From: an uncultured Gammaproteobacteria bacterium
GTDB taxonomy: Bacteria; Patescibacteriota; Microgenomatia; Levybacterales; UBA12049
Direction of reading: 5' to 3'
Length of the DNA stretch: 64,000 bases
NCBI GenBank assembly: GCA_964507055.1
Contig: CAZDOJ010000001.1
Span: 721,313-785,312, forward strand
Each line of letters begins with the position of its first letter. The first letter of the stretch is position 1. Positions 2,322 to 63,526 of the stretch are shown one piece after another. The notes under the pieces are model-generated. The model did no database searches and had not been told where the DNA came from. It saw only the letters and a list, made by a program, of their open reading frames with translations. Position numbers and translations under genes: made by a program.

Positions 2322-4946
2322 ATGGATTTATTAATTTTTTCAGAGCTTATATCAAGTAATAATTTCTTTTTACTTTTAAGTCATTATTTTTCGTTTTTTG
2401 TTCCATTTAGTGGACTAGGTATTTATCTGCAAGGAGTACCAACTGCAAATATCTTGGATTTTTTTTGGGGAACAAATGCAGGACTAAGAACACTTCCATT
2501 GCTTTTTTTCCTATCGATACTTCAGTATGTTTTTCAGAATAATTGGAGTACTGCTTATTTGGCTATTTCAATTGTACTGCCATTTATTACATTCTTAATT
2601 GCATGTCGATTTCTGGGAAAACTTTCGCTATTTAATTTTATAGGTGCAATGTTCTATGGAGGAAATGTGTGGATTATTAATAGAATTTTTACGGGATTTT
2701 GGCAATTAAATTTGAGTTACGCATTTCTTCCTTTTCTCATTGTAATTCCATTACGATTAGTTTCTACCAAAGTTCATATAACTGAACTATTATTTCTTGT
2801 TTGTATTTATAGTATTGCAGCAAGCTTTGTGCTTATTTCTCAGCCTCATTTTCTTATTATTACTATACTTTTTGCCGTATTTCAATTTATACAATGTTGC
2901 ATTTCTAAAGATACTGACGCTCTCAAAAGATTGCTTATTTTCTATTTACCATCTGCATTTCTTTTCTTTTGCATCAATGCTTATTTTTTTATACCTGGGA
3001 TATTCTTTCCTGAAAAACTATTTACGGCACCAAATCAATACTTTTCAATAGGATCTGTCATATTCAACGGTCAAGGAAATTTAATCGAACACGTTCTTCG
3101 ATTTGAACCTTTAGGACAATCTTCTCAAAATTTTACATGGACATGGATAAACTTTATACAGTTTATACCTATTCTGTTATTTCTTATCATTTTTCTTATC
3201 AATAAAAACCGACAATATATATATTTACTGCTTGTTTTACTATTTATTTTTTTTGCAAAAGGTTTAAATGAACCTTTTGCTGATATTAGTAGATGGATTT
3301 ATCAAAACATCTTTTTTATGCATTATTTCCGCGATCCAGCAAGATTTATCGCTGGCGTTGTACTTTTTTCTTCAATGAGCATTGCAACATTTCATATAAA
3401 GAAAAAGCTTCCAAAAAAATTGCAACTACTTATAGTTGCTAGCACTATTTTACTTTTTATAACCATTAACATTAACTCGTTCTATCCACCAAAAACGGAT
3501 ATCTTTAAATCTACGAGTATCCCCAAAGAGTATCTTAACCTACAGAAATTTATTGCAAATGATCCTCGTATTGATGCACAACAGCGACTATTAATTCTTC
3601 CAAATAGACATGGATTACAGGGCTACCCTTGGTATACAAATCCTTCTCCAAATACATCCAACACCATATTCGATGCCATCCTACCATTAGAAATTTCTTT
3701 AGCAAATAGCTCAAATTACCCAGATAACTATTCGAATCAAATTAGTGCTTATATTTATGAAGAGTATACGAAAACTTATGATGAAAAGTTACTTATACCG
3801 CTCGGAGTACAATATGTTCTTATAGATGAATCGATTATTAAGCCGCAACTAGAAAAGGATATAGCTACGAGTTCTGCACAGGCATTATTAAACAATCCAG
3901 CGTATCAAAGAGTCTTTTATGAAAAGCCACTTAGTCTTTTTAAAGTGAATACTCAAGCAACTCTTTTTAGCGACCAGAAACCAGTTTTTGCCATTGGTAA
4001 TTTAGCAACAATCACTAAACAATATGTTTCTGGTATCGAAAGACCAACTATTCTCCTTAATCAACCTATTAATAGGGATTTAATAAATAATTCATATTTA
4101 AAAGACAGGGAAATTTTAATTGATGTAAAGAATCCACTTTTAACTATTACGGCAGAATCACTTGCTGAAAAGTATTTTGTGGATATATTAAAGGCTGGAT
4201 GGGATTATGACAAGATTTTTGGAAATTATGAACCATATAAGATGAAATCGGTCATAACTAATGGACAACTCTTTACCAGTGGAAGAGCCGTCGTTTCGCA
4301 ACCTAAAAATGGATTCATGCATATAAATCATGATCTAGAACCCGGAACATATAAAATCCTAATTAAAGCTCTTTCAGAATTCGATAGTGTGGGGATAGAA
4401 CTAGCAGCAGGAAACAAAAAAAACATTCAAGTGGATACAAGTAATCAGCTACTTTGGATCGATGCTGGAACAATTAAAATTGACAAAAAGCAGTCATATA
4501 TAACATTAACAAAAACAGATAGTAATCCTTTAGTAATTGATTATCTACTTTTAGTTCCTGAAACAACTTGGAATGAGTCGAAGAATTCAATGAATCAAAT
4601 TCTTCAAAATATGCGTGCTTATCATCCAATAAATACACAAAACTCAATTACTCAATTTACTATGCAAGATAGAGATATTATAGAATTGGGTAAAGCTTAT
4701 CCTTATATTACTGCTCGCATAAGTTACAGCGATTATTGGAGAAGTGACACTCCTTCAGAAAATTTTATAAGCGATGCATATGGAATAACATTCATAGCAA
4801 AAAACATAAACATAAAAAATATAGATTACTATCCAAGTAAAATCTTCAAAGCTTTATTTCTTATAACATTGACTATTGGTATTATTGTCGGTTCTTATTG
4901 TTATTATTTTATTATAAAGAGACTGAAGAACCACTTATTTAAGTAA
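2322..4946 (+). CDS. large polytopic membrane protein, N-terminal TM bundle + ~480-aa extracytoplasmic domain + C-terminal TM anchor (putative GT-C-fold glycosyltransferase, AftD/DUF3367-like architecture)
   Basis: 874-aa ORF. The first ~390 aa are strongly hydrophobic with many helices. A soluble domain follows, then a terminal helix IFKALFLITLTIGIIVGSYCYYFII. Family assignment rests on architecture only. Confidence 0.4.
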   Translation: MDLLIFSELISSNNFFLLLSHYFSFFVPFSGLGIYLQGVPTANILDFFWGTNAGLRTLPLLFFLSILQYVFQNNWSTAYLAISIVLPFITFLIACRFLGKLSLFNFIGAMFYGGNVWIINRIFTGFWQLNLSYAFLPFLIVIPLRLVSTKVHITELLFLVCIYSIAASFVLISQPHFLIITILFAVFQFIQCCISKDTDALKRLLIFYLPSAFLFFCINAYFFIPGIFFPEKLFTAPNQYFSIGSVIFNGQGNLIEHVLRFEPLGQSSQNFTWTWINFIQFIPILLFLIIFLINKNRQYIYLLLVLLFIFFAKGLNEPFADISRWIYQNIFFMHYFRDPARFIAGVVLFSSMSIATFHIKKKLPKKLQLLIVASTILLFITININSFYPPKTDIFKSTSIPKEYLNLQKFIANDPRIDAQQRLLILPNRHGLQGYPWYTNPSPNTSNTIFDAILPLEISLANSSNYPDNYSNQISAYIYEEYTKTYDEKLLIPLGVQYVLIDESIIKPQLEKDIATSSAQALLNNPAYQRVFYEKPLSLFKVNTQATLFSDQKPVFAIGNLATITKQYVSGIERPTILLNQPINRDLINNSYLKDREILIDVKNPLLTITAESLAEKYFVDILKAGWDYDKIFGNYEPYKMKSVITNGQLFTSGRAVVSQPKNGFMHINHDLEPGTYKILIKALSEFDSVGIELAAGNKKNIQVDTSNQLLWIDAGTIKIDKKQSYITLTKTDSNPLVIDYLLLVPETTWNESKNSMNQILQNMRAYHPINTQNSITQFTMQDRDIIELGKAYPYITARISYSDYWRSDTPSENFISDAYGITFIAKNINIKNIDYYPSKIFKALFLITLTIGIIVGSYCYYFIIKRLKNHLFK

Positions 4947-12479: not shown

Positions 12480-14015
12480 TTAATTTCGCTTTTCTTTCTT
12501 TATTACGAGTGTTTGATCAGGATAGATAGTAGTTTTAAGAGTTTTATATTTTGTATCTGCACCTCTAAAATTAATAAAATCTTCTTTATTTTTTACATCC
12601 TTAGGAATCACAAGATACATTACTTTTGTTTGATCTTTAATAAGACCTGGATCGTAAGGAACATCTTTTCCTGCATGAATACGGAATAAATAAGAATAAT
12701 CATAAGTATAAATTGCATCGTTTGCAGCATATATCGTGTAGTCATTACTGCCAGCATCCTTTCTTATACCCTCCACTACATTCTCTTTTGCAGCCAATGT
12801 ACCAAAATTCTTTGTAAGATCTTTATTTATGTTTGTTATATATTTAAATCCATTATTTGCAATTAATAGAAAGACAACAAACATAATAATAACCTTAATC
12901 CACTTAAGTTTATTGATAATAATTCCCACAGCGAGCAAGAAGATAATTTCGATTCCAATGAAATGATAATCCCACACTGGATTATTTGCAGTAAGATAAA
13001 TAAAGAGAATTCCTGTAGTTATACTCAGAACCAATATTGATAGTTTTAACTCATTCGGTGTTTGTTTACCTCTGTTTTTGATAAAATAGTAAACGAGCCC
13101 TGCTGCAAAAATAAAAGCAAAAATAGACAATGACATTTGGAATAAATCTGCACCTCTCTCAAAAAATCTACTTATTATTTGTTCACGACTAAGGCCTGGA
13201 AGATCTACGACTCCACCGTAACTAAATAACGCATTGAGTAAGGCTTGTGTTTGTTGAAATTGATGTCGTAATTCGAATAGTAAAAAAGGAGAGAATGAAA
13301 CTATTAATCCTAAACCAAAAAGTATGTTCTTCAGCATAAATTCTTTTAGAGAATGTATTTTATTTTTTTCTTTTAAGAATTCATTTATACCTTCATAGAC
13401 CATATAAATAATAATTCCAAGCATCATTCCTATACCAAATGATAAGTGAAAGTTTAGAACCAATCCTGCACTAAAACCACCTGCAAAAAGGATAAACAGA
13501 TTTTTAAAATGAAAACTGCTCGTTCTAATTAACAGTAAATATATTGTTACAAGAAAAAAGAGCGGAGCTAAATGCGGATTCCATAAATTCGTAAAGTAGC
13601 TTGAATAACTCGTTAGAAATAGTAACCACAAAATTGATATGGTACCTAATGTGAATACTTTTCGCATTTTAAAAAGTATAAAAGGAAAAACGAGAAGATA
13701 AGGCAATGTTTCGACAACAAATGTCACGACCTTTGGATCAGGTGAAAATAATTGTCCAACGCTTAAGAACCATATCCAATATGGTCCATAAAACACACCA
13801 GGAATTCCTGAAGTTGGACCGATTAATGTTGGCTTACTAAGATTTGAGAGTCCAGCAAGCATATCACGGGCAGGATCATACCAAAATGAGAAGTTTCCAG
13901 TAAAAACATTTGTCAAAATAATAGTAATGGGTATAAGAGATACCAAAAAGACTAGTGCAAAAAGAATTTTATTATTTCGATACAATAATTTTTGTGGTTT
14001 TAGTTTATTTTTCAT
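12480..14015 (-). CDS. polytopic membrane protein, putative GT-C-fold glycosyltransferase (family unassigned)
   Basis: Multi-TM protein. The loop motif WYDPARD...LIGPTSGIPGVFYGPYWIWFLSV is shared with the 38461..40047 protein. Start trimmed from 14096 to MKNKLKPQ (14013-14015) to avoid a 92-nt overlap with the upstream GT2. Confidence 0.45.
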   Translation of the reverse strand: MKNKLKPQKLLYRNNKILFALVFLVSLIPITIILTNVFTGNFSFWYDPARDMLAGLSNLSKPTLIGPTSGIPGVFYGPYWIWFLSVGQLFSPDPKVVTFVVETLPYLLVFPFILFKMRKVFTLGTISILWLLFLTSYSSYFTNLWNPHLAPLFFLVTIYLLLIRTSSFHFKNLFILFAGGFSAGLVLNFHLSFGIGMMLGIIIYMVYEGINEFLKEKNKIHSLKEFMLKNILFGLGLIVSFSPFLLFELRHQFQQTQALLNALFSYGGVVDLPGLSREQIISRFFERGADLFQMSLSIFAFIFAAGLVYYFIKNRGKQTPNELKLSILVLSITTGILFIYLTANNPVWDYHFIGIEIIFLLAVGIIINKLKWIKVIIMFVVFLLIANNGFKYITNINKDLTKNFGTLAAKENVVEGIRKDAGSNDYTIYAANDAIYTYDYSYLFRIHAGKDVPYDPGLIKDQTKVMYLVIPKDVKNKEDFINFRGADTKYKTLKTTIYPDQTLVIKKEKRN

Positions 14016-14886
14016 TCTTTCTTTTCTTATATCGTATATATGCTCGAGGGAATCGCAATGCGGAAAAAAGAGAGAAAACAAATCCTTGGTATCCATCTAA
14101 GATACCTTTATGTCTCAGGTATGTTAAAAGGAACCAGCTTGCTGGCTTGAATAACATATAATTTGTTTGAACCTTAAAGGTGTCGCTATCTTTTTTCTCT
14201 GTTAATTCAGAGCTTATTAGATTTATATAACGACTATTTCGTTGAAGGTAACGTGCAAAATTTGGTGAGTCGATATGATAAAGATCATTTTGTAACCATC
14301 CTACTCTGCCATCAACTTCCATTTGTTCATGAACGTCTTTACAAGGCAAATATGCTTTCCCCTTGCGAATCAAACGAATAACACCATCAGGATAGACTCC
14401 TCCATATCGTAGATACTTCCCCAAAAAATAATTTAATCGTGGGATAAAAAACGCAGAATATTCTCCTGATTTTTTGCCAATCCTCCCATCCCTTTGTTCC
14501 AATAATTCTTGATGTTTTAGAAACAGATTTCTATTTGGTAAATTCTCTTGATATTTTTCAATTTCATGATCGGACATTTCTGTCATTTTGACAATCTCTG
14601 CTGCAAGTGCTGGACTTACTCTTTCATCTGCATCTAATTGAAGTATCCATTCAAACTGTGCCATGTCAATTCCCTTTTGCTTATTTATGTGGAATATTGG
14701 GGGATTATCTGTCACAACAATTTTTGCATTATATTTTTTCGAAATCTCTACAGTTTTATCAGTAGAAGAACCATCAATAATAATAATTTCATCAGCAATT
14801 TCTTTTACAGAGTCTAAACAATCTCCAATATTTTTCTCTTCATTAAATGTTGCTAATACTACTGATAACTTCTTATTCATATTCAT
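14005..14886 (-). CDS. glycosyltransferase family 2 (WaaE/KdtX-like subgroup)
   Basis: LSVVLATFNEEKNIGDCLDSVKEIADEIIIIDGSSTDKT, and DxD in QLDADERV. Paralog of 22333..23091 and 23156..24070. Start taken at MNMNKK; the track ORF extends to 14916. Confidence 0.85.
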   Translation of the reverse strand: MNMNKKLSVVLATFNEEKNIGDCLDSVKEIADEIIIIDGSSTDKTVEISKKYNAKIVVTDNPPIFHINKQKGIDMAQFEWILQLDADERVSPALAAEIVKMTEMSDHEIEKYQENLPNRNLFLKHQELLEQRDGRIGKKSGEYSAFFIPRLNYFLGKYLRYGGVYPDGVIRLIRKGKAYLPCKDVHEQMEVDGRVGWLQNDLYHIDSPNFARYLQRNSRYINLISSELTEKKDSDTFKVQTNYMLFKPASWFLLTYLRHKGILDGYQGFVFSLFSALRFPRAYIRYKKRKNEK

Positions 14887-18873: not shown

Positions 18874-20886
18874 TCAGTCTTTTATCTCAAGTATTATAAC
18901 ATTTCTGTTTTCAAATCTTTTTACAAAATACTTGGAATTAAACTTAAAGGGTAGTTTTTGATCCTGAACCTTTTGTAAATAAAGATATTTAATATTTTTA
19001 GCTTTTGCGTTTTTAGCAAACGACTCAACATTTTTTGTTGCAAATAATTCAGAAAGAGCATATTCTAATTTTTTAATATTTTGGCCATGTGACTCTATCA
19101 TAGTAATACCAGAAATATAAGAATTTCTATCGGAAAAATATGCGACATATGTTGTGCTATGATCATGTGCATTTCTAGGATGAGATTGTACAAGAGCATC
19201 CCTTGAACTATGCAGACGAAGATAAGTAAGTGCCTCAATCTCTTCAGCAGGGATAATTGCTCCAGTATTTGTGATAATAACTGATGCTGCTGTTGCAGTT
19301 TCATAAAATGCCCTGGGAACAGTTAGGACAATCACAACAATAACTACTATGGTCGCCCATATTTTTTTCTTACGCATAAGCGTATATATTAAATACGCAG
19401 TGAAAAGAGCCATAACAGTAGTTGAGACAACAAAAAAATTAAATACATTAAAGCTCCCTGCTTTCTGCAGTGTTAAGAGGCCAAGGAGTTGGAAAAGAAG
19501 TATCCCAGGCAAAAAGAATAACATATGTTGCCATCCAAGCAGCTTGAATAAATCTTTATGGGGGATAATTCCCAGTAAACGAGTTCCATGGATACAGATC
19601 AAACCCACCAACGCTGCAAAGATATTATAGATAATTATATTTCTAGTATTGTCTGCTGCCTCATAAACTTGCATTCGGAGCCACCATTCTTGCATGTTTA
19701 AATTTTGATATCCCAAAAAGACTTTAGGCCATTCTAAGGGATAATATGCTAAACCACCGGAACTTGCGTTGGGAGGGAAATAAACTATCGATGCAATTGT
19801 TCCAAATAATATGAGTAAAAGAATAGTTCTATACTCCTTTACGAAAAGCTTTTTACAACTTTTGCCAAATGAATATTTTCTTACTAAATGAATAAGTGAC
19901 ACGATTATCCGTCCACAAACAATTAAGGCAAAACCAAGAGCTGTAAATATCCCGAAATAAACTTTAAACCCAACTAATGGAGCAAAGAAAAGTACCGAAA
20001 GGAATCCCCACTTATTTTGGTTTGATTGAATCCAATTATATAAAGGAATCAAGCCACTTATAAATATCATTTTTGCCGCAGCATGTGGCATGTTATAAAA
20101 TTGCGTTATTCCATTATCAATTGCTGGTGTATAAAATCCAAACTTATGCTGTAAAATGAGCATGAAAATATATGCTGCATCTCCACCAAAGTAGAGAAAA
20201 AATAGTGCACATGCACTTGCCATTTTGGATTTTGTCCATAGACGCATTAACAAAAAGGTTGCCATACTGGTTATAACCGCTAAAAATAAGGGGATAAAAT
20301 GAAAGAAAATATGATGGGCAGGAATGAACCAAACTCTGGAGAGCTCAGCAATATTAAGATCCATCCAATAATGATAATTTATAAGTTCTAAGGTAGCAGC
20401 TCCTGGTTCCCTTGGTGGGAAGGTAGTCATCATTTCTTGTATATAAGCCATATGCATTAAACCATCCACGCTATTGGGCCCCAGAAAGCGCATACCTTCA
20501 CTAGTCATCCACCCTGAGCCAAGCATAACGAGTGATTGAAGAATTACCCCAACAAAAATAAATACACTAATAGATTTGTTTTGTCGTATTCTTCCAGTAA
20601 CATAAATAAATATTTTTTTAAGTTCATTTCTATGTGGAATTGCGAGAATGGCTACGAGTAGTAGAAAAATGTAACTTACCCAGCGAAGCTGTAAATATCC
20701 TAAAATATATGCTTGCAATGTCCATAAAATATACCCCAAACATAGGGCAAGAACAAAGTTTGTGATACTCATTTTAGAGTCTATTTTCCGTATGAGCAGG
20801 AAACCTGGAAGATAAAACGAAATAAATACAGCAACGAAGAAGCCTATGAGTGATAACCAAAATTGATAATCAAGAATCGAATACAT
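18874..20886 (-). CDS. large polytopic membrane protein (putative GT-C-like or polymerase; family unassigned)
   Basis: 670 aa, with more than 12 predicted helices and then a ~150-aa C-terminal soluble domain. No motif I can name. Confidence 0.35.
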   Translation of the reverse strand: MYSILDYQFWLSLIGFFVAVFISFYLPGFLLIRKIDSKMSITNFVLALCLGYILWTLQAYILGYLQLRWVSYIFLLLVAILAIPHRNELKKIFIYVTGRIRQNKSISVFIFVGVILQSLVMLGSGWMTSEGMRFLGPNSVDGLMHMAYIQEMMTTFPPREPGAATLELINYHYWMDLNIAELSRVWFIPAHHIFFHFIPLFLAVITSMATFLLMRLWTKSKMASACALFFLYFGGDAAYIFMLILQHKFGFYTPAIDNGITQFYNMPHAAAKMIFISGLIPLYNWIQSNQNKWGFLSVLFFAPLVGFKVYFGIFTALGFALIVCGRIIVSLIHLVRKYSFGKSCKKLFVKEYRTILLLILFGTIASIVYFPPNASSGGLAYYPLEWPKVFLGYQNLNMQEWWLRMQVYEAADNTRNIIIYNIFAALVGLICIHGTRLLGIIPHKDLFKLLGWQHMLFFLPGILLFQLLGLLTLQKAGSFNVFNFFVVSTTVMALFTAYLIYTLMRKKKIWATIVVIVVIVLTVPRAFYETATAASVIITNTGAIIPAEEIEALTYLRLHSSRDALVQSHPRNAHDHSTTYVAYFSDRNSYISGITMIESHGQNIKKLEYALSELFATKNVESFAKNAKAKNIKYLYLQKVQDQKLPFKFNSKYFVKRFENRNVIILEIKD

Positions 20887-27939: not shown

Positions 27940-29454
27940 TTATTGCTTTAGTTCATACAGTGTGTAATAAGATTCTTTATCTTCTTTTTGAATTTGCAGA
28001 ACCTTTGTGAGTGTCCATGTATCTGGAGCTAAGCCAATCCCTTCGCAAGGAGGACATGGTTGATAAAAGACAACATAAGTTGGCATTGTTTTGCTTGCAT
28101 CGAGTATTTCTTGCGGAGGGGTATCATTTATTGGCCAGTAACCTTGAACTTTTATATTTGGATTCGTGCCAAGATATATATCGAGTGCATATGGCATGAG
28201 GCCAAATGTACCTTGCGTTGCTACATAAATTTTCTCATTTTTTGCTTTCGCTTCGAGAAACTTTACTGTTTCCTTCACGCCATTTCCGGCAGGCCAATCA
28301 GTAACGAATTGTTCTCTATCGCCTTGCGGAATTGCTGCTTTAGAAAAATTAGTCATGATATGAAAATCAGTAACGATCCACATGCCCGTAAATACAACTG
28401 CAATAAGCACTTTTAACCAGCCTGTTTTTACATATGTGAGTAATGTATACAACGAAAATGCACCCAATAAAATAAGCGGCATAGTCATAAAAAGAATAAA
28501 TCGTGGATAGATAACTTTTCCAAAAAACGCCAAAGCCATAAAAGGAACAATAAACCATACAAGTAATAAAAGTTTTTCTCTTGTGTATTTCTTACTGACG
28601 AAGAATGAAGCAAGGACAAGAATAAGGAACGGAAGTGTCATATAACCAATCAACCAACCACTCAAACCTTGTAGGTTGCCAAATACATAAGCAAACGGAT
28701 TCTGGAACCAGTCACTGAATGAATAAATGAACGTAAGATTTTTCTCGCCAATAATATGATAAAAAGGCGACAGTCGTAGAATTGCATAGATTGCCTGAGC
28801 CAATACAAATGCAACTACTGCAAATCCAAACCACTTAAAAAGTTTCTTCCTATCTAACTTTTCTTTGAATGGAAAAAGAAGCAAAGAAAACGGAAGCAAA
28901 ATAAATCCAAAATTTGCACTTGTCTTCGTCAACATTCCTCCTCCAACAATCATCCCCAATAATAATGCTAAGTCTAATCGCACATATCTTGCAAGCAAAA
29001 CGGAGAAATATAATGACCATATGATGAATAAGGCAACCATTGAATCATACAGAGCCATGCGATCATAGACCAAGGCAAACGGGTACAGGACATATAAGAT
29101 GCTCGCTGTTAAACCAATAAACTTATTCTTAAATAGCTCTCTCCCAAGAAGGAACATACCTACCATTGAAGCAAAACCAGTAAAAACAGAGACAAGTCTT
29201 CCTGCAACTAAAGGATCTTTTACAAATTCGATAAGGATCATTGCTGCCCAAATAAATGACGGCTGCTTTCCATCGGTAAGAGAGATAAATCTCCATGTGG
29301 CATCATTATTTGCAATTTGAGCCCAACGGATATAGATGGCCTCATCAGTAAAGATAGGTAGCCCGGTGAGGTTATATAAGCGAGTAAAGAAGTATAATCC
29401 CGCTAACAAAACGAAGAATGTACTGAGATAGAGATGTTTTCTAATATAACGCAT
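27940..29454 (-). CDS. ArnT/PMT_2-like GT-C glycosyltransferase
   Basis: First-loop PIFTDEAIYIRWAQ (DE motif), multi-TM, and a C-terminal ~130-aa soluble domain. Confidence 0.6.
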   Translation of the reverse strand: MRYIRKHLYLSTFFVLLAGLYFFTRLYNLTGLPIFTDEAIYIRWAQIANNDATWRFISLTDGKQPSFIWAAMILIEFVKDPLVAGRLVSVFTGFASMVGMFLLGRELFKNKFIGLTASILYVLYPFALVYDRMALYDSMVALFIIWSLYFSVLLARYVRLDLALLLGMIVGGGMLTKTSANFGFILLPFSLLLFPFKEKLDRKKLFKWFGFAVVAFVLAQAIYAILRLSPFYHIIGEKNLTFIYSFSDWFQNPFAYVFGNLQGLSGWLIGYMTLPFLILVLASFFVSKKYTREKLLLLVWFIVPFMALAFFGKVIYPRFILFMTMPLILLGAFSLYTLLTYVKTGWLKVLIAVVFTGMWIVTDFHIMTNFSKAAIPQGDREQFVTDWPAGNGVKETVKFLEAKAKNEKIYVATQGTFGLMPYALDIYLGTNPNIKVQGYWPINDTPPQEILDASKTMPTYVVFYQPCPPCEGIGLAPDTWTLTKVLQIQKEDKESYYTLYELKQ

Positions 29455-32100: not shown

Positions 32101-33329
32101 TTCTTTTTCTTTCGTTTAACTTGACGTGCAAAAAGTATTTGCTTGTAAAAAAAGTAGGCGGTAATAATAAGAAATGCTAAAGTATAACTCAAGAAATTCA
32201 TATCTAAAAGAATTTGAGGTATTGGCTTATCCCAGTTACCCGTAAAAAGGAATGGTACATAATTCATCAAGGAGAAAAATGACACAATGACAGCTGGAAT
32301 TAGCACATAATATCGATAGGAAATGAGTGCAGCAAAAGCTAAAACATCAATAAGATACCACGGCTGAAATGTACCTCTATATGATTGTGCCGCCGCTCCC
32401 CCAATAAGAAGTATTACTGCTATGCCAATAATAAAACCCCATTTTCGATGAATCTTCTCGGCCTTCATTCGGTGGATAACGACAAATAGTGGTAATAAAA
32501 CAGCTGTGACAAATTTTATTGCAATGGAAAGAAATAGTAGCCCATACGCTTTACCATGTTTTTCTATAATCATAAAATAGAATGCCCAAAGGGCAAAAAA
32601 CATCATGACAATGTCAATGTGAGGACTTACAACACTTTCTATAAGCATCAGTGGATTTAATCCAAAGAAAATAAGCCCCATTACTTCTCGTTCCGGAGCA
32701 ATCGTCTTTAATATTTTTCCAATAAAGAATACTGAACCGATGAAACAAGCTATCATTAACAATTTAAAAAGGAAAAATGTTGGCAAAAAGAATTGCAAAC
32801 CTATGAAAGAAAGAGGTACTGTAATCACCAACCAGAACGGACCATATGGATATTCTCGATGGGTCCAACGCATAAATGAAAGCATCGGATCCTCAGGATA
32901 ATCTAGAGCTTTTTGTACATAAGGATTGTCTCCATAATGAGTTATAATCTTTGCATCAAATATATAATTAAAAATATCATAGGAAAAAGCGTTGTAGGAA
33001 AAGGTAAGAATAATTGTGGCTGCACCAATCAAAATCCACGTAAACTTTTTTTGAATCTTCTTTTTGGTAGCTAGTCTTAAAAAGATTACATAAAAGACAA
33101 AAAGGATCACAACAAGTGAAACAAAAAGGGTTGCAGAAAGAGGCCTGTCAAAATATCCAATCTGTTGAAAAGAGCGTACAATTTCCTGAAGTGCTTCATT
33201 TCGAGAGAGAGCCAAACTTAAATCAATTTGTGTAAAACTGTAGAAGAATAATCCAACAAGCGGGACACAATAAAAGAAAAGGATTAAATATTCTTTTAAT
33301 GATAAATTTTTAAATAGTGTTTTCACCAT
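32097..33329 (-). CDS. polytopic membrane protein, GT87/DUF2029-like, paralog of 29475..30929
   Basis: SYDIFNYIFDAKIITHYGDNPYV and LNPLMLIESVVSPHIDIVMMFFALWAFYF align with its paralog. Confidence 0.4.
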   Translation of the reverse strand: MVKTLFKNLSLKEYLILFFYCVPLVGLFFYSFTQIDLSLALSRNEALQEIVRSFQQIGYFDRPLSATLFVSLVVILFVFYVIFLRLATKKKIQKKFTWILIGAATIILTFSYNAFSYDIFNYIFDAKIITHYGDNPYVQKALDYPEDPMLSFMRWTHREYPYGPFWLVITVPLSFIGLQFFLPTFFLFKLLMIACFIGSVFFIGKILKTIAPEREVMGLIFFGLNPLMLIESVVSPHIDIVMMFFALWAFYFMIIEKHGKAYGLLFLSIAIKFVTAVLLPLFVVIHRMKAEKIHRKWGFIIGIAVILLIGGAAAQSYRGTFQPWYLIDVLAFAALISYRYYVLIPAVIVSFFSLMNYVPFLFTGNWDKPIPQILLDMNFLSYTLAFLIITAYFFYKQILFARQVKRKKKK

Positions 33330-34087
33330 TAATTATATCTTCCTGCAAGTACATTTCTTTTAATTTTTACAAGATCTTTTACTCCCTGAATCGCATCGCG
33401 TACAGGATTAACTCTTCTCGTCTCTACATGAAGCCAATTTACATGAACTTCTTTTATTTTATAGCCATGATTTCTTGCAATGTAGAGAATCTCAATATCT
33501 GATCCAAAAGTAATTGCTGTCCCCTTAACTTTCTCAAAACCATTTTTTAGAACTTTTAATTTATTAAATACATCGTCCGCTGCTTTTGCAGTAAACAATT
33601 TAAATCCACATTGTGTGTCTGTTATATCATTAATGCCTATTATCATTTTTCTCATAATGATTGCACTTCGAGAAATAAATAAACGTATCTCCGGAGCACC
33701 TTTTCGCTGCGTACTTCTCGAACCAATGGCGATATCATAGTCTCCACTTTCAAGATATGGTAGTAAATTATTAACTTCTTCAATAGGAGTAGCCTGATCC
33801 ATATCAGTAAAAAGACGGTACTCACCTTGTGCTTTCAACATGCCGGTAGTAACAGCACCAGCTTTTCCATAGTGAGGGTTTTTAATTAAGATAAAATGAG
33901 GATTTTCTTTTATAAATTTTTCGATAAACTCGACGCTACCGTCTCTCGATCCATCATCAGCGATGATTACTTCGTAGGAAATCTTTTTCTTTTCAAGAAA
34001 ATGCTGTACTTTTTCAAGCACACCTTTCTGGAGATTAGCCATCTCATCATAGCAAGGAATAACAACAGAAAGAAATATTTTCTTCAC
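33329..34087 (-). CDS. GT2 polyprenol-phosphate sugar synthase (DPM1/ALG5-like)
   Basis: LSVVIPCYDEMANL, IADDGSRDGS, FTDMDQAT and TQCGFKLF. Confidence 0.75.
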   Translation of the reverse strand: MKKIFLSVVIPCYDEMANLQKGVLEKVQHFLEKKKISYEVIIADDGSRDGSVEFIEKFIKENPHFILIKNPHYGKAGAVTTGMLKAQGEYRLFTDMDQATPIEEVNNLLPYLESGDYDIAIGSRSTQRKGAPEIRLFISRSAIIMRKMIIGINDITDTQCGFKLFTAKAADDVFNKLKVLKNGFEKVKGTAITFGSDIEILYIARNHGYKIKEVHVNWLHVETRRVNPVRDAIQGVKDLVKIKRNVLAGRYN

Positions 34088-40649: not shown

Positions 40650-41123
40650 TTAACGACTTTCTACTTGAAGTAAATATTCTTTACACTGGATTCCAGCAAC
40701 ATATCCCCCAAATGCTCCATTACTCGCTAAAACCCTATGACATGGAACGATGATACAAATCGGATTTCGACCAACCGCTGATCCAACGGCTCTGACTGCT
40801 TTTGGCTTACCGATCTTTTCTGCCAAATCCGTATAAGAAACTGTTTTCCCAGAAGGAATTTCCTGCAATGCTTTCCAGACAGATTCTTGGAATGGTGTTC
40901 CCGTAAACTTTATTGAGAAATCAAACTTTTTTCTCTTACCTTCAAAATACTCTCGTAACTCTTTCTGTGCTTTTTTTAAAACTGAATTCTCAGAATCCCA
41001 CTTCCAATCTGAAGGGATTTGTGTAAAATATCGATCACCTTCGATATGCAAATGCGTTATGGCCTCTCCATCTGTAGCCAAGGTAATCTCTCCAACTGGT
41101 GAAGTCATCGTACTATAAATCAT
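40650..41123 (-). CDS. ogt: methylated-DNA--protein-cysteine methyltransferase
   Basis: Active site IIVPCHRV, plus TPFQESVWKALQEIPSGKTVSYTDLA. Start ambiguous: 41123 MIYSTM or 41108 MTSPVG. The track ORF reaches 41156 and overlaps the upstream gene. Confidence 0.9.
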   Translation of the reverse strand: MIYSTMTSPVGEITLATDGEAITHLHIEGDRYFTQIPSDWKWDSENSVLKKAQKELREYFEGKRKKFDFSIKFTGTPFQESVWKALQEIPSGKTVSYTDLAEKIGKPKAVRAVGSAVGRNPICIIVPCHRVLASNGAFGGYVAGIQCKEYLLQVESR

Positions 41124-43062
41124 TTCTTTTGAACTTTCTTTTAATTGTAGTTGCACTACTGATGATTATAATAGACACAACAGCAAAAACAAAGCCAGGA
41201 TCTGTAACGACATATATAATTCTATTTAAAAGTAATATATATGGTTTTTGAAGTAATTCTAACTTTGGTTGAGAATACACTGTAACCAAACTTGTTGATG
41301 AAGTATCAACAAAAAGTTCTTCTGAATTATTCACTCTCTTTGACGAAAGTTCTAAGACATAGTCTTTCCCTTTTGCATCAACAATAACTGGAATCCCAAA
41401 CCCAAAGAAGGGAGATCCTTCAGCAGTATTCGCATCGCGAGTGTATGTTGCAATTTCTTTATTTTTACCATCCAACAACCTAATAGTAAATTTAGACAAA
41501 CTACCACGTTCTAGATTCTCTGAAGGATGTTCCTGGGCATAACGCAAACGAATATATATAGCACTGAGATCTTGATCTTTTGCTTTAAAGGGTATCCGTA
41601 AAGCTTTTTCACTTACCTGTAATTCTGATGTTTGAGCGGTGATTGGATGTCGTGATAGTAGTAAAGTGGGAGAAAAACTACCAGAATACAAATAAAATAT
41701 AATGGCAATACTACAAAAAGCAGTAACTACAACTCTACGTGTTGAAAATGATTGTGAAGCTTTTCTGACTTTTTCTTTTGAAGAAGCGAGTGTCGTTTCA
41801 AGTAAGTCTCTCTTGCTTTTGAAATATAATCGCTCGATGAAATAAAATAAGTAACTTGCTACTGCTACTCCCAAAATGATCATCAGGAAAAATACAAATG
41901 TATCGTTAAGATTTGGGAAACTCATTGTTGCTTTATTTACCCATTCAATAATATGAGTATGAGAAAGATACAAAGAATAACTAATTAACCCAAGAAATAC
42001 TAACATTTTAGTACTAAAAATTTTATAAGAAAGCGTTTTAGGAACAATTGCCGAAGCAATGAGTAAAGCAATAATCCAACTTGAGACAAGATAGTAATAG
42101 TTCATGAATACGATACTTTGTCCATGACGAATATGTGTATCTCCCCATTGAAGTCCTACAAATAAGAGTAATATAAAAATTACAGAGAAAGGATTACTAA
42201 CAAATGGTAAAAGCTTTTGCCAAATTTTTCCATTGCTTTGATAAATAGTACCAAGAACAACCCCCGCAACAAACCCACTTGCTCGTGCAATATTCATACT
42301 TTGCAGACCCGCAAATGGAACTATCGCGTAATCTAAATTAAAAAGAATTATTGTAACTGCAGCAATGCACAGAACCGAGAAAAATATTCCAAGCTTTTTA
42401 CAAACATAAATCAAAGGAATAACAATAAAAGGATAGACTACATAAAATAAAACTTCAGGAGCCAAACTCCAAACCACACCACTCAACCGTAGAATATCTT
42501 TTGCAAAAGGCGTCGTCAATGTAAGATTTGAAAGTAAAGTTAGTATGTTTGTAATATCAGTTGCTCCTGGGTTCGCAAAGAAGCGAGGAGTAATGAAGAT
42601 ATTGAGAAAGACCAGTATTATCTGCAAACTAACAAATCCAAAAAAAAGTACCTTCCCAATATATCTTGAAACCATAGATGCTTTGAACAATTTCCACAGA
42701 AAAAATACACCTAAGGCAGTTCCTAAGAATATAAGTGCTTGCAAATAATATGGACTTCCTTTGATTTGTGAAATAAGCCAAAGAGAAGTAATTACAACAC
42801 CTAAAATTGGAAAAATACGTGCATAGCGTTTTTGAATATACTTCCATGTAACGGGTATCGACGGGTACAAAAAAGCCATAAGAAAACCTGACAAAACGAA
42901 AAGTATTTGGACAGAATTTGGCCCTACAGCAAGGGTTTGATAAGCGGTGATAATAATAGGATTCGGTATAAATAATGAGGGAGAATAACCAGTATGAGAA
43001 AGTAGTACGGCGAATGCAGCAAATCCTCGCAATCCATCAAGTGCAGGCAATCTTGTTTTCAC
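41113..43062 (-). CDS. acyltransferase family 3 (OafA/YrhL-like O-acyltransferase) with extra C-terminal domain
   Basis: LPALDGLRGFAAFAVLLSH and about 10 TM helices. These are followed by a ~200-aa non-SGNH soluble domain and a terminal TM helix. Confidence 0.8.
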   Translation of the reverse strand: MKTRLPALDGLRGFAAFAVLLSHTGYSPSLFIPNPIIITAYQTLAVGPNSVQILFVLSGFLMAFLYPSIPVTWKYIQKRYARIFPILGVVITSLWLISQIKGSPYYLQALIFLGTALGVFFLWKLFKASMVSRYIGKVLFFGFVSLQIILVFLNIFITPRFFANPGATDITNILTLLSNLTLTTPFAKDILRLSGVVWSLAPEVLFYVVYPFIVIPLIYVCKKLGIFFSVLCIAAVTIILFNLDYAIVPFAGLQSMNIARASGFVAGVVLGTIYQSNGKIWQKLLPFVSNPFSVIFILLLFVGLQWGDTHIRHGQSIVFMNYYYLVSSWIIALLIASAIVPKTLSYKIFSTKMLVFLGLISYSLYLSHTHIIEWVNKATMSFPNLNDTFVFFLMIILGVAVASYLFYFIERLYFKSKRDLLETTLASSKEKVRKASQSFSTRRVVVTAFCSIAIIFYLYSGSFSPTLLLSRHPITAQTSELQVSEKALRIPFKAKDQDLSAIYIRLRYAQEHPSENLERGSLSKFTIRLLDGKNKEIATYTRDANTAEGSPFFGFGIPVIVDAKGKDYVLELSSKRVNNSEELFVDTSSTSLVTVYSQPKLELLQKPYILLLNRIIYVVTDPGFVFAVVSIIIISSATTIKRKFKRNDL

Positions 43063-59147: not shown

Positions 59148-60377
59148 TTAGAGAGATTTTCGTGGCCCATCTTCCGGCCCATCTTCTTCACCTGACCAAT
59201 CAACTTCTCCTCCCAATGAATCAAGGGGAGAGTCGTCTGAATCCAATGGAGGCATAGAAGGTGGCGGCGTTTTAGGAGCTTCATGTGTAATCCACACACC
59301 CATTGGATCAAAGCCAGTTACCTCAGCAGTTCGTTGATCAATAGTTAATGGATCTCGGAGATCTGCAATATAGTATTCGACTCCCAATAGACTTGGATCT
59401 GTTACTTTATATCCTAAAATTTCACTTACTTGGTCAACAACTTTTTGGGTTGCTGTAGCCCGAGCTTCCACAATCTCTTCGGCAGTTGGATCCTCTTTGC
59501 CAGCTAGGGCATCAGTTGTGAAAGCATCAATTTCCAGCTGCCAACGAGACTGTGCAGCTGCTATATTTTCTTTGACTGGTTGTGCATACATTTCCAATTC
59601 TTGAGCATTGGCACGCAATCCTTTTGTTTTGTCTATATATTCTCGAATTGCTTCACGCTCCAAATCTTGTCCTACAGTAGCTTCTCGCATTATTCGTGCA
59701 GCTTGTACACTATCGAATGCTTCTGCATACTTTCCACGTTCGAAATCGCCAAAAAATGTATCCATTCGCTCTCTAAGTCCTTCTGGATCAGTCATCCCTA
59801 CTCTATAAAAAATGGGACCGAGATTTCCATTACTATGGATCTTTTCCCCTGTAATAATACTGACTCTTTTTAGGACTTCTTCTTGTGCTCTTGAGTTGGC
59901 CTCAAATGGTGGATGATATTGCGAGTACCTATTAACAAGAGTTGTATGTTCTTCCTCAAACAGAAACTGAACAGCCTCAATATGACTTACGACCCCATAT
60001 CTAAAATCGGAATATTCGTTTACTTCATGTATACCGTCACTCGTGTGAGAGGGATCTCTGTGGTATCTTTCCCGAAATAATTGTAGGGTTATTTCATCCC
60101 GATGTTGGGTGAATGATTTTTCATCACGACCCTCTGAATAAGTATTTGGATGTTTCGAAGGTCTCTGATGTATATCATGGGTAAAAAGTTGTATCCCGGG
60201 ATCCCTAGGATCTATCATTCCTTTATCCAGCCATTCTTCCTGGGCAATTTCTTGGGCACGACGTGCGTATCTGCCACGGAATGTGAACCGTGAGGTTGCT
60301 TTAAAAGTTTCCCATCGTTCGCGGAAACCTTGTTTGGGTTGATCTGGTCTACCTGGTTGTGATTCTGGGTTTTTCAT
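59148..60377 (-). CDS. acidic soluble protein of unknown function carrying the C-terminal VDWSG-DGPE tail
   Basis: 409-aa ORF with no TM segment and no motif I recognise. The C-terminus DSDDSPLDSLGGEVDWSGEEDGPEDGPRKSL matches the tail of the upstream gene. Confidence 0.6.
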   Translation of the reverse strand: MKNPESQPGRPDQPKQGFRERWETFKATSRFTFRGRYARRAQEIAQEEWLDKGMIDPRDPGIQLFTHDIHQRPSKHPNTYSEGRDEKSFTQHRDEITLQLFRERYHRDPSHTSDGIHEVNEYSDFRYGVVSHIEAVQFLFEEEHTTLVNRYSQYHPPFEANSRAQEEVLKRVSIITGEKIHSNGNLGPIFYRVGMTDPEGLRERMDTFFGDFERGKYAEAFDSVQAARIMREATVGQDLEREAIREYIDKTKGLRANAQELEMYAQPVKENIAAAQSRWQLEIDAFTTDALAGKEDPTAEEIVEARATATQKVVDQVSEILGYKVTDPSLLGVEYYIADLRDPLTIDQRTAEVTGFDPMGVWITHEAPKTPPPSMPPLDSDDSPLDSLGGEVDWSGEEDGPEDGPRKSL

Positions 60378-60437: not shown

Positions 60438-63239
60438 TTACAGTGTCTTTTGCTGATCTGTTTCTGGACCATCATTGTCGCCAGACCAGTCCACACCAGA
60501 ATTTAACTCCTCCAATGAGATATCATCTTCAGAGAATTGCGGACGATCTTCACCTGATTGACCAGCGTGAGGAGTAGAACCTGGAAGTTTCTTTTCAAGA
60601 AGACCTTCTTTTTGCAGTGATCGGACAATCTTCCTTGTTTCATTAAATGTAAGCCCGGTAATTGTTGCTATTTCGTCCAATGTAGCATGAGGTCGTAACT
60701 GTATAATCTGATCTCGTTGTCGTTGTTGTGCTTCAAGAACTTCCTCTGTTGGAGAAGTATCTATTCCTTTCTTATCGAGAATAGCTTTTGCATCGTATAA
60801 GGATTCCAATGGATAATTGGTCTCTTCATGTATCTGTTTAATTGACTTACCAGCACGTAAACCGATAATCAGTGCTTCACGACGATCATTTCTCACAACA
60901 TCACTTGTATCTTGCCAGTTCACAACATACCCATAATCACCTGCCTCGGTCAACCTTCGAGCAATATTTTCTTCACTAAGATAGACCGTTCTTGAAATAT
61001 CTTTTATTCGGCTTCCTTCGTTATAAAGAGTAATAACCTCATCGTATCGATCACGTATTTCCTCAGCGGTTCGACCCTGAAGATCTGTAGGAATTTGAGA
61101 TAGTACTGTATCTACCATTGGCTTTATAAGTTCCCATGAAACCCTATCTTGCACTTTACTTGCATAGGTACTCCATGCATGACGCATAGATCTTGCATCG
61201 CTTTCTTGATCATCCATATGCGGTGCAAAAATCTCAGCAACTCTTGCTAAGGAGTATGGACTGCCGAAAGGATCTTCATTACCTGCTTGTGATTCAACTG
61301 TTGTAAAGTATGTTTGCTTGAGAGTGGAGAGATCAGTTCTTGAAAGATCCATTCGGCTGAGTAATTCTTCGGCAGCATCTCTTCGGTCAACAGACCAAGC
61401 AGCGTCATTTCCAATTCCCCGAATTAACCGAGCAGCAAGATCTGTGGATTGGTCTGGAGTTAGTTCATTCATAGCAGCCATTGCTTCTGCTCTTACAGTG
61501 GTCCATTCAGCAGGATCACTGTGATAAAACTTCCACAGGTGGTTATCACCTAAATATTTTTCTATTATTTGCACTTGAGGATCAAGTTCATCAGGCCGGA
61601 GTAGTTTTATTTCACCCTTCGCGAGTGCACGTATCGATTCAAGATCACCCTCCACCTTTAAAGCATCTGCGTGGATCAGATGTTCCATCAGATCATCGAC
61701 ACGTCCCATACTTTTATCCCAAGTAGTTGATCCCATACTATTCAAATTAACAGCTCTTACCCATGTATCTCTGATATCCCAAAGCCCTTGGGTATCTGTT
61801 TGCAATACTTCAGCAAGGATAGTTCCTGACTGCAATAGAAGATTTGGATCGGAGGTATTACTCTGATTTTCTACTGCCCATAAATACCGCTCGGTCAATA
61901 CATTAGAATCTAAGCCTTCAAGATCTACCCCTCTTAAAAGCTGTAAAGCAACGTATTTTGCATTCCCCTCTCTCCCCATTTTGCTAATGAGAGCTCTAGT
62001 AAACCACGTTCTTTCTTTTGTGTTTAATCTATTTATATCGTGCACTGCACCTTTGTATTCGTCACTTGCAGTTCGGCGATCAAGAAATCTCTTATACTGA
62101 CTGGCAAACAATCTATATTCCAAAGTTGCGGCATTAAACTCAGTCCTTTTTTCTTCAGCTTCGTTCGTTTCTGGTACTTCAGGGACTTCACCACCTTGTT
62201 GTACCCAATAATCCAGTATATGTTCATCTGTACTTAACTTTTGTAAAGTATTTTTATACACACGTCTAACAGTCATCGAAGAGATACCCATTCTTTCCGC
62301 TATTATCTCTTGTGTTACACCATCTTTGAAAACCGCTTCAAGAATATCCCGCTCTCGTTCTGTTAAACTCTCAGTCACAGTATCAAATACGTTATGAACA
62401 TCAACTGGTGTAGCCATAGACCTAGTAAGATATTCCTCTACTGTATCCTCTGGTACTACTCCTATTTCCTTAAAAATCATTCCAATGGCGGTTTGTATAT
62501 GTAAATCAATTGGCTGAGAATCCATCGTACTGAGATGTTCAGCAATAGCTTGTCTTGTAGGCATTTCTCCGTGTTGCTCGAAATAATTATTAGCAAATGA
62601 ATAGCCCTCCAGATAAACTAACTGAGCAATTCTGGGAATTCTAATCTCATCATCTTGTTGAACTCGTGCCTCAAAAATTGCACTTCTTACTCTTCTTGTA
62701 GCATATTGATAATAATCTACGCCTGAATCAGGATCATAGTCATCGAGTACATTGGTAAGCTCTGCTAGTCCTTCTTGAAACCTATCTTCAATTGTCATAT
62801 GCTTTGTGGTATGCCTTCGGGCAGGTCCAAGGATAATACCGAGACTACAGTTTAAAAGAAGTTGTGATACAGAATTACTCTCTGTAATTACTGCCTCGAA
62901 TTCCTGTTGAAATTTATTACTATTTTCTGGTGTATTGGTTCCAAAGGCTTCATTCGTTTGAATATCTGACAGTAACTCTGTACGCTGCGTATGCATTTGC
63001 TTTCGTGCTGAGGGTGTAGGATTCTCATTATAGTTATTGACTATAGATTTTTCTTGTGTGTATGCTCGAAACAAAACTGACCATTGACGCTGTGACAATT
63101 TCTGAGGATACCGAATAATTTTATTCCAGTAATCTGCATGCAAAGAAATGCTCCCAGCACCTTCTTCACGGGCTCTGTCAGCATATTCTTCTTCCCTAAA
63201 TCGGCGAGCAACCGCACCAGGTCTATTTCTCTCTGTCAT
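60438..63239 (-). CDS. sigma-70-family-like protein with ~570-aa C-terminal extension (internal repeats, three extra HTH modules, acidic VDWSG-DGPE tail)
   Basis: Region 2-like EDRFQEGLAELTNVLDDYDPDSGVDYYQYATRRVRSAI. Region 3-like IRIPRIAQLV...GEMPTRQAIAEHL. Region 4 LTERERDILEAVFKDGVTQEIIAERMGISSMTVRRVYKNTLQKL. Three further HTH-like units precede the tail. Confidence 0.65.
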   Translation of the reverse strand: MTERNRPGAVARRFREEEYADRAREEGAGSISLHADYWNKIIRYPQKLSQRQWSVLFRAYTQEKSIVNNYNENPTPSARKQMHTQRTELLSDIQTNEAFGTNTPENSNKFQQEFEAVITESNSVSQLLLNCSLGIILGPARRHTTKHMTIEDRFQEGLAELTNVLDDYDPDSGVDYYQYATRRVRSAIFEARVQQDDEIRIPRIAQLVYLEGYSFANNYFEQHGEMPTRQAIAEHLSTMDSQPIDLHIQTAIGMIFKEIGVVPEDTVEEYLTRSMATPVDVHNVFDTVTESLTERERDILEAVFKDGVTQEIIAERMGISSMTVRRVYKNTLQKLSTDEHILDYWVQQGGEVPEVPETNEAEEKRTEFNAATLEYRLFASQYKRFLDRRTASDEYKGAVHDINRLNTKERTWFTRALISKMGREGNAKYVALQLLRGVDLEGLDSNVLTERYLWAVENQSNTSDPNLLLQSGTILAEVLQTDTQGLWDIRDTWVRAVNLNSMGSTTWDKSMGRVDDLMEHLIHADALKVEGDLESIRALAKGEIKLLRPDELDPQVQIIEKYLGDNHLWKFYHSDPAEWTTVRAEAMAAMNELTPDQSTDLAARLIRGIGNDAAWSVDRRDAAEELLSRMDLSRTDLSTLKQTYFTTVESQAGNEDPFGSPYSLARVAEIFAPHMDDQESDARSMRHAWSTYASKVQDRVSWELIKPMVDTVLSQIPTDLQGRTAEEIRDRYDEVITLYNEGSRIKDISRTVYLSEENIARRLTEAGDYGYVVNWQDTSDVVRNDRREALIIGLRAGKSIKQIHEETNYPLESLYDAKAILDKKGIDTSPTEEVLEAQQRQRDQIIQLRPHATLDEIATITGLTFNETRKIVRSLQKEGLLEKKLPGSTPHAGQSGEDRPQFSEDDISLEELNSGVDWSGDNDGPETDQQKTL

Positions 63240-63277: not shown

Positions 63278-63526
63278 CCTATAGTGAGTTGACTCCAAAG
63301 AATAATTTATATTTAATAAAAAAGTTATGGGACATATAAATTATTTTACTATTCAACAATGATGAGCTTGACGAATTATTTTTTAATTGCTATAAATTTT
63401 ACACACCTTAATATTTTTTCAAATACTCTTCTGTATCTAAAATCTCATCATTTTATTAATTCCTTACAAAATATTTAATCATTTACACTTTTCTTACCAC
63501 TTTATGATTGAAAATTTATATGGGTC

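Follow-up and report, generated by a model that had tools for sequence, protein, structure and literature searches.

Sigma factors with a regulatory domain built into the same polypeptide are known from the extracytoplasmic function (ECF) group. Fused C-terminal domains regulate the ECF41 (SnoaL-like), ECF42 (TPR), ECF52 and ECF56 sigmas (PMC3426412, PMC8999054, PMC7826278), and a literature search found C-terminal extensions of sigma factors only in ECF-type proteins. The protein analyzed here, P0001, has 933 residues and is encoded on the minus strand at 60438..63239 of a 64,000-nucleotide window (GenBank assembly GCA_964507055.1, contig CAZDOJ010000001.1, positions 721,313 to 785,312) from an uncultured bacterium placed by GTDB in the Patescibacteriota. 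As in the ECF sigmas with extensions, which include a helical-repeat (TPR) type, a sigma-70-family factor and a non-sigma domain share one polypeptide. P0001 differs from them in that its sigma part aligns with primary and group 2/3 sigmas and in that its ~590-aa extension, made up of a new duplicated domain (X), three helix-turn-helix (HTH) modules and a C-terminal tail, is also found free-standing. The literature search returned no description of this architecture, of the X domain or of the shared tails considered below.

The gene was delimited from a listing of open reading frames (ORFs). An earlier note on this DNA had examined 60438-62162, which corresponds to aa 360-933 and the 3' two-thirds of the ORF, and had called the protein atypical for sigma factors. 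That description holds, with aa 360-720 covered by no Pfam or NCBIfam model and the extensions in the literature being of the ECF type. Ten contigs, drawn from several independent sequencing runs, encode an identical protein, as does a 1.32-Mb NCBI genome contig, and this recurrence argues that the long ORF is not an assembly fusion or other assembly artefact.

A divergent sigma core and a duplicated helical domain

The sigma-70-family core lies at aa 102-340 (62220..62936, minus strand) and was recognized by TIGR02937, by Sigma70_r4 and by phmmer alignment to SigA/HrdB. TIGR02937, the NCBIfam sigma-70 superfamily model that spans regions 2 to 4, scores 69.5 bits against a cut-off of 42.9. Sigma70_r4 (PF04545) matches aa 291-335 with 51.2 bits (cut-off 24.1, E 8.7e-14), which places the -35-binding HTH of region 4. 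In the phmmer comparison with solved structures, aa 102-336 align without a break to SigA/HrdB residues 257-503, the IRIP motif included. This alignment covers regions 1.2, 2, 3 and 4.2 with a distance of ~90 aa between regions 2 and 4, whereas ECF factors have regions 2 and 4 only and lack regions 1.2 and 3. Judged from these model scores and from the continuous alignment through regions 1.2-4.2, the sigma part appears to be a complete, divergent, non-ECF sigma factor.

The core (aa ~102-340) is similar in size and region content to the group 3 sigmas (SigB/SigF/SigG and FliA/WhiG), and the best NCBIfam similarities at the subfamily level are to TIGR02980 and TIGR02479. P0001 nevertheless stands apart from group 3, with scores far below the subfamily cut-offs (63 versus 234.35 for TIGR02980 and 39.7 versus 189.6 for TIGR02479), an extra N-terminus of ~100 aa and the C-terminal cassette. 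The family alignment shows that these first ~100 residues are specific to the small family to which P0001 belongs. An acidic, proline-rich, flexible linker follows region 4 and joins the sigma core to the extension. The PADLOC model of MzaA, from the Mza defence system, gave a weak match (E 7e-6) between its positions 432-636 of 683 and P0001 aa 126-320 (window 62280-62864), which probably reflects a sigma-like domain within MzaA and not a functional link.

The first part of the extension consists of two copies of the X domain. Copy 1 extends over aa 367-519 (61683..62141, minus strand) and is an all-alpha, ARM/HEAT-like solenoid in an AlphaFold2 (AF2) model. Copy 2 extends over aa 551-721 (61077..61589, minus strand), is the canonical form (E 3.7e-58 with the copy-2 hidden Markov model, HMM) and carries the motifs W-x-V-D-R-R-D-G-A-x-E-L-L and D-P-x-G-S-x-Y-S-L-x-E-A-G. 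Duplication within the extension had been claimed in the earlier note, with repeat detection proposed as the check, and the statistics support it. The Smith-Waterman score between unselected halves of the extension (aa 345-560 versus 561-735) was 68, compared with 32.7 +/- 5.6 after shuffling; 0/1000 shuffles reached 68, and the Gumbel p is ~2e-4. The two segments originally singled out gave p ~7e-6 by themselves in the same type of test. Comparison of the copy-1 and copy-2 alignments, homologues included, by hhalign returned a probability of 99.6% and E = 3e-24 over 134 columns, and the HMM of either copy detects the other copy in all family members. The internal duplication is real. The aligned peptides reported before (aa 417-479 and 605-671) lie within the two copies, but the repeated unit is ~150-170 aa long and not the ~65 aa that those peptides had suggested.

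AF2 run on the single sequence of full-length P0001 was uninformative (predicted local distance difference test, pLDDT, 43), and the structural description refers to a model of aa 361-890 made with a 24-sequence alignment (mean pLDDT 89). In this model, which is entirely helical, each X copy is a bundle of 9-10 short helices, and three units of three helices each come after the second copy. No Pfam, NCBIfam, PHROG or PADLOC model matches X, PDB sequence searches with the extension, with an X profile and with an extension profile gave no match, and Foldseek searches against the PDB and against viral models (BFVD) returned nothing at E < 1e-3. X is thus like the ARM/HEAT/TOG alpha-solenoid interaction domains in fold class only; a sequence relation is not seen in Pfam or the PDB, and all Foldseek E values are > 4e-3. 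On the evidence of the model, X is a new family by sequence that probably belongs to the ARM/HEAT fold class. Solenoids of the ARM/HEAT type typically mediate protein-protein interaction and not DNA binding.

HTH modules and the free-standing cassette

Three HTH modules follow the second X copy, all on the minus strand. HTH1 occupies aa 723-770 (60930..61073; AF2 bundle aa 725-768), HTH2 aa 779-826 (60762..60905; AF2 bundle aa 781-823) and HTH3 aa 830-884 (60588..60752; AF2 bundle aa 832-877), the last followed by a conserved K-K-x-P-G. In the AF2 model built with the multiple sequence alignment, each has three helices and the HTH turn geometry in a confidently predicted structure. Block-mean pLDDT is ~61-84 for HTH1 with its flanking linker, ~80-93 for HTH2 and 92-95 for HTH3. 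The proposal that three HTH-like units stand in tandem, made from peptides that lie at aa 739-767, 794-825 and 848-881, is therefore upheld by structure prediction, the check suggested for it. The units are not detectable as a sequence repeat; their pairwise similarity is not significant (p 0.10-0.28), and including sigma region 4 in the comparison gives p 0.10-0.60.

Sequence comparison outside the protein relates the modules to a known class. Three consecutive ~55-aa repeats of poly-HTH_23 proteins can be aligned, in register, with residues 723-888 (E 3.8e-11 in a whole-library search queried with the extension, and 9.8e-10 on recomputation with the full-length protein). A profile of a single unit from these proteins matches HTH1 (E 9.2e-11), HTH3 (E 1.1e-6) and sigma region 4.2 (E 1.6e-5). 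The modules thus resemble the repeats of tandem HTH_23/HTH_7/psq-type proteins such as P0016 and P0021, and the AF2 model of P0001 shows the same three-helix units. P0001 differs from these proteins in having only three units, which are strongly diverged, embedded in a sigma/solenoid protein and below the Pfam gathering thresholds. No stretch within aa 723-884 reaches a gathering score. The nearest are HTH_40 (23.8 versus 27) and HTH_7 (22.8 versus 23.8) on HTH1, and HTH_Crp_2 (19.2 versus 27), HTH_IclR (17.1 versus 22) and MarR_2 on aa 839-884, which belong to HTH3. HTH_23 does match P0001 above its threshold, but its best stretch is sigma region 4.

The best-conserved part across homologues is HTH3 with the K-K-x-P-G that follows it; P886 is invariant in the family alignment, and HTH3 is the only module with a conserved basic recognition helix. 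DNA binding by the modules is plausible, most so for HTH3. The earlier suggestion that the three modules and region 4 would act as four DNA-reading heads and bridge RNA polymerase to multiple or extended sites is only partly supported: the duplication and the HTH folds hold, and combined DNA reading is speculative.

Homologues of the extension came solely from an exhaustive search, in which phmmer was run with the extension and yielded 43 relatives. Word-indexed searches returned the query only for the full protein, ordinary sigma factors only for the family alignment and nothing for the tail alignment. The arrangement of a sigma core followed by X-X-HTH is also present in P0003, P0006 and P0009 (922-1000 aa), which come from other metagenomes. 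P0004 and P0007 are X-X-HTH proteins that lack a sigma domain, P0005 has three X copies and HTH modules, and the genes upstream of these are unrelated. X by itself forms the N-terminus in >30 further protein clusters, and many such proteins are encoded in ordinary chromosomal contexts; one of the genes has bipA, dinB, DUF2079 and ykuD around it on a bacterial contig of 594 kb. Since the cassette is also free-standing and X heads many other proteins, P0001 is a fusion of a sigma factor with a putative regulator. The extension is thus a self-contained cassette that became joined to a sigma factor in a few lineages.

Relatives were not found when GTDB representative genomes were scanned with the protein and the X-domain motif, when IMG/VR was scanned with the motif, or in tblastn searches of INPHARED phages and PLSDB plasmids; a scan of JGI metagenomes added three loci. 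PHROGs and PADLOC gave only generic sigma/HTH matches and none to X or to the downstream protein P0002. Among the proteins with an N-terminal X is a conserved ~775-aa family (P0013/P0017/P0022/P0026/P0035/P0043; L016 6370-8694, L017 6289-8613, L011 645-2972) whose remaining ~600 aa have no Pfam match and contain G-D-L-T-G-D-C-T-A-Y-H-L. The gene for this family directly follows uvrA, a transglutaminase-core gene and uvrC in two unrelated metagenomes.

Shared C-terminal tails, P0002 and the chromosomal setting

P0001 ends in an acidic tail (aa 885-933, pI 4.05; 60438..60587, minus strand) that was recognized by its similarity to the C-terminus of P0002. Over 34 aa of this ~45-aa tail the two proteins are 47% identical (E 5.5e-7), and they share the motif L-x-x-L-x-x-G-V-D-W-S-G-x-x-D-G-P-E...K-[TS]-L-stop, which occurs in these two proteins only within the ~74 kb available around the locus. 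The common residues are encoded by differing synonymous codons, which indicates that the peptide itself is conserved and rules out a recent duplication of the DNA.

P0002 is the product of the next ORF downstream (59148..60377, minus strand). It is an acidic protein of 409 aa with no Pfam, NCBIfam, PHROG or PADLOC match, its copy of the tail is encoded at nt 59148-59285, and the gene has its own -10 box 8 nt ahead of the ATG. Residues 225-358 resemble 750-810-aa proteins encoded in the P0006 and P0009 loci (E 5.5e-9 to 1.5e-5). The sigma-fusion gene is immediately followed by the relative in the P0009 locus; the closer relative in the P0006 locus is encoded one gene further on, and a third relative is on the upstream side.

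Tails are shared at the homologue loci as well. The loci of P0003, P0006 and P0009 and that of P0004 contain runs of 3-10 adjacent proteins with a common, locus-specific tail of 40-50 aa. These proteins are mostly unrelated in the body, several are sigma-like or winged-HTH proteins, and orthologous sigma-fusions bear the tail of their own neighbours and not that of their orthologues. Leave-one-out tail HMMs placed the best match at the extreme C-terminus in 25/25 proteins. The tail motifs outside the window (loci L007, L009, L010 and L014) are E-P-x-I-G..S-I-A..E-A..K-x-K, I-F-x-K-Y-G-[IL]..P-E-[IV]-E-E and S-G-A-W-T..H-R..P-x-V..V-G. The homologue islands also encode additional tail-bearing proteins of sigma-like type (Sigma70_r2 or r4 only) and with multiple winged HTHs (MarR/Penicillinase_R/IclR-type), at L009 3700-4848 and 4909-6390, L010 5034-5936, and L007 8826-11777 and 12057-14450, and the islands resemble arrays of transcription-factor-like genes.

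The tail-bearing island proteins have no Sec signal peptide and no N-terminal transmembrane segment, and in only two is there a hydrophobic stretch further inside, near residue 235. At their N-termini, the motif M-x(0-4)-E-R is present in 13/24 island proteins compared with 1/48 other ORFs of the window (Fisher p = 4e-7) and also in 12/39 X-family proteins, followed by a hydrophilic R/P/G-rich stretch. The P0001 copy is at window positions 63228-63239, and others are at the N-termini of proteins in L007, L009, L010 and P0003-P0044. The tail may act in sorting, as a degron or in the binding of a partner.

The window is an ordinary piece of chromosome with genes for glutamine synthetase, GH5, GH18, alpha-amylase, Lon, a sortase, two-component systems and a glycosylation cluster; genes for rRNA, tRNA and secretion are absent from it. 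A small genome, low GC, the sortase and the DUF2079/PMT_2 content suggest that the bacterium is Patescibacteria-like. The cluster is a large one for cell-envelope glycosylation, a ~29-kb same-strand run at 4973-34087 (minus strand) composed mainly of GT4/GT1 glycosyltransferases, PMT_2 and GT87-type membrane glycosyltransferases and Polysacc_synt flippases. Several ORFs of 370-870 aa in or beside it have no Pfam match (for example 2322-4946, 12480-14096 and 18874-20886). The P0002 and P0001 genes have the highest GC content in the window (0.428 and 0.404 compared with 0.351 +/- 0.024), but their GC3 is average (0.27 versus 0.265). The high GC is thus a matter of amino-acid composition, and recent transfer does not account for it; horizontal acquisition of the two genes is ruled out by their GC3, and the P0001 gene is resident.

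A promoter-like sequence, TTGAGT-17-TATAAT, lies directly upstream of P0001 (63240..63277, minus strand). It was identified as a consensus match only, and its -10 box ends 9 nt ahead of the ATG, so the transcript is probably leaderless or near-leaderless. Across the window, Shine-Dalgarno motifs precede 1/49 ORFs, and a TATAAT-like -10 box, often G-A-G-T-A-T-A-A-T, lies 5-11 nt before the ATG of 12/49, P0001 and P0002 included (further examples are 44461, 41113-43062, 33329-34087 and 27940-29454). Boxes close to the ATG also precede nearly every gene of the homologue islands (L007/L009/L010/L014). This pattern suggests that individually transcribed, leaderless genes are widespread. At 63301-63345, ~60-100 nt upstream of the P0001 start codon, there is a perfect 12-nt AT-rich inverted repeat (AATAATTTATAT / ATATAAATTATT, spacing 21 nt); it sits in a very AT-rich intergenic region of 350 nt, and its significance is therefore doubtful.

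Proposed role of P0001 and competing explanations

P0001 is tentatively interpreted as an alternative sigma factor to which a regulator cassette, specific to the lineage, has been fused. The sigma part would dock onto core RNA polymerase and read the -10/-35 elements, and the HTH array, most credibly through HTH3, would add DNA contacts or anchoring near the target promoters. Protein-binding surfaces on the X solenoids and on the tail would couple the factor to one or more genome-specific partners, held in common with the tail-bearing neighbour P0002.

Several observations weigh against this interpretation. Sigma70_r2 (PF04542) scores 21.9 bits at aa 139-192, slightly below its cut-off of 24, and P0001 has R-R where primary sigmas have the W-W dyad, which bears on promoter melting; replacement of this dyad is common in alternative sigmas. 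HTH2 is not significant with the single-unit poly-HTH profile (E 0.25), and it is a predicted module seen in the structure model only. The pI values of the three modules (4.8, 6.5 and 7.2) range from acidic to neutral. A repeated operator-like motif, for which the earlier note had proposed a search, was not found upstream of P0001, where the search returned only AT-rich palindromes of doubtful significance. The predicted template modelling score of the AF2 model is 0.51, and the relative orientation of the domains is therefore not fixed and contacts between the sigma part and X within one molecule are possible. Finally, a sorting signal explains genome-specific tails on mostly unrelated neighbours no less well than a motif for a regulatory partner does.

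One alternative is that the extension regulates the sigma factor in cis, in the manner of an anti-sigma factor. The X solenoids might fold back on sigma regions 2/4 and either inactivate them or be needed for their activity until a partner, for example P0002, or a signal acts. The regulation of ECF41/42/52/56 by fused C-terminal domains is a precedent (PMC3426412, PMC8999054, PMC7826278), X has a protein-binding fold, the linker after region 4 is flexible, acidic and proline-rich, and a conserved neighbour bears the tail of P0001. The cassette and X are, however, present in many proteins that have no sigma domain, which argues that X is not specialized for the sigma factor to which it is attached here, and regulation in cis is considered unlikely.

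The tails enter differently into the proposal that P0001 is cargo. The genome-specific tail, possibly together with the N-terminal E-R motif, would be a sorting or secretion signal (for example of a type IV-like system), and the sigma-like protein would be delivered to another cell to redirect its RNA polymerase. Runs of 3-10 tail-sharing and mostly unrelated proteins at the homologue loci, the agreement of orthologues with their neighbours in tail type, the strictly C-terminal position of the tails and the conservation of the P0001/P0002 tail as a peptide all favour this proposal, as do the enrichment of M-x(0-4)-E-R and the lack of Sec signal peptides and N-terminal transmembrane segments. 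Type IV secretion system (T4SS) genes are widespread in small-genome Patescibacteria, and their substrates are not known (PMC12102498). Set against these points, there are no secretion genes within the 64-kb window, only two genes in ~74 kb of this genome carry the tail, and a common tail could equally be a degron or the motif for an intracellular partner.

Substrates of T4SSs have conserved C-terminal translocation signals, such as the XVIPCD of the Xanthomonas X-Tfes and the Glu-rich Dot/Icm signals. The tails may be like these in that unrelated proteins of one genome share a hydrophilic, charged C-terminus; the comparison is a lead and not a finding. The P0001-type tails are shorter (~40-50 aa) than XVIPCD, vary from genome to genome and are not known to be connected with any secretion machinery. 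Delivery as cargo is accordingly judged improbable. A broader version of the same idea, if anything more speculative, would make P0001 and P0002 members of a large class, so far undescribed, of transcription-factor-like proteins that carry the tail (and the N-terminal E-R motif) in small-genome bacteria and are exported into a partner or host bacterium independently of Sec, and in which the sigma part would capture the recipient RNA polymerase and X and the HTH modules would bind host factors or DNA.

Chance similarity or an artefactual fusion of two genes, to which the non-significant pairwise similarity of the HTH units and the failure of word-indexed searches to find a relative of the extension might point, is ruled out for practical purposes by the shuffles, hhalign, the HMM cross-hits, AF2, the 43 relatives (three with the same architecture) and the 10 contigs.

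If P0001 is an alternative sigma factor fused to a regulator cassette, as tentatively proposed, built-in regulatory domains, so far essentially confined to ECF factors, extend to a non-ECF sigma with a new duplicated domain family and a tandem HTH array. A sigma factor fused to a transcription-factor module whose cassette also circulates as an independent protein provides a testable case. The tails are the element most likely to be categorically new, and their genome-specific occurrence on runs of sigma-like and HTH proteins points to an undescribed signal for sorting, partner binding or turnover in poorly studied small-genome bacteria. Should the tail be an export signal, P0001 would be a candidate translocated sigma factor, the first of its kind.

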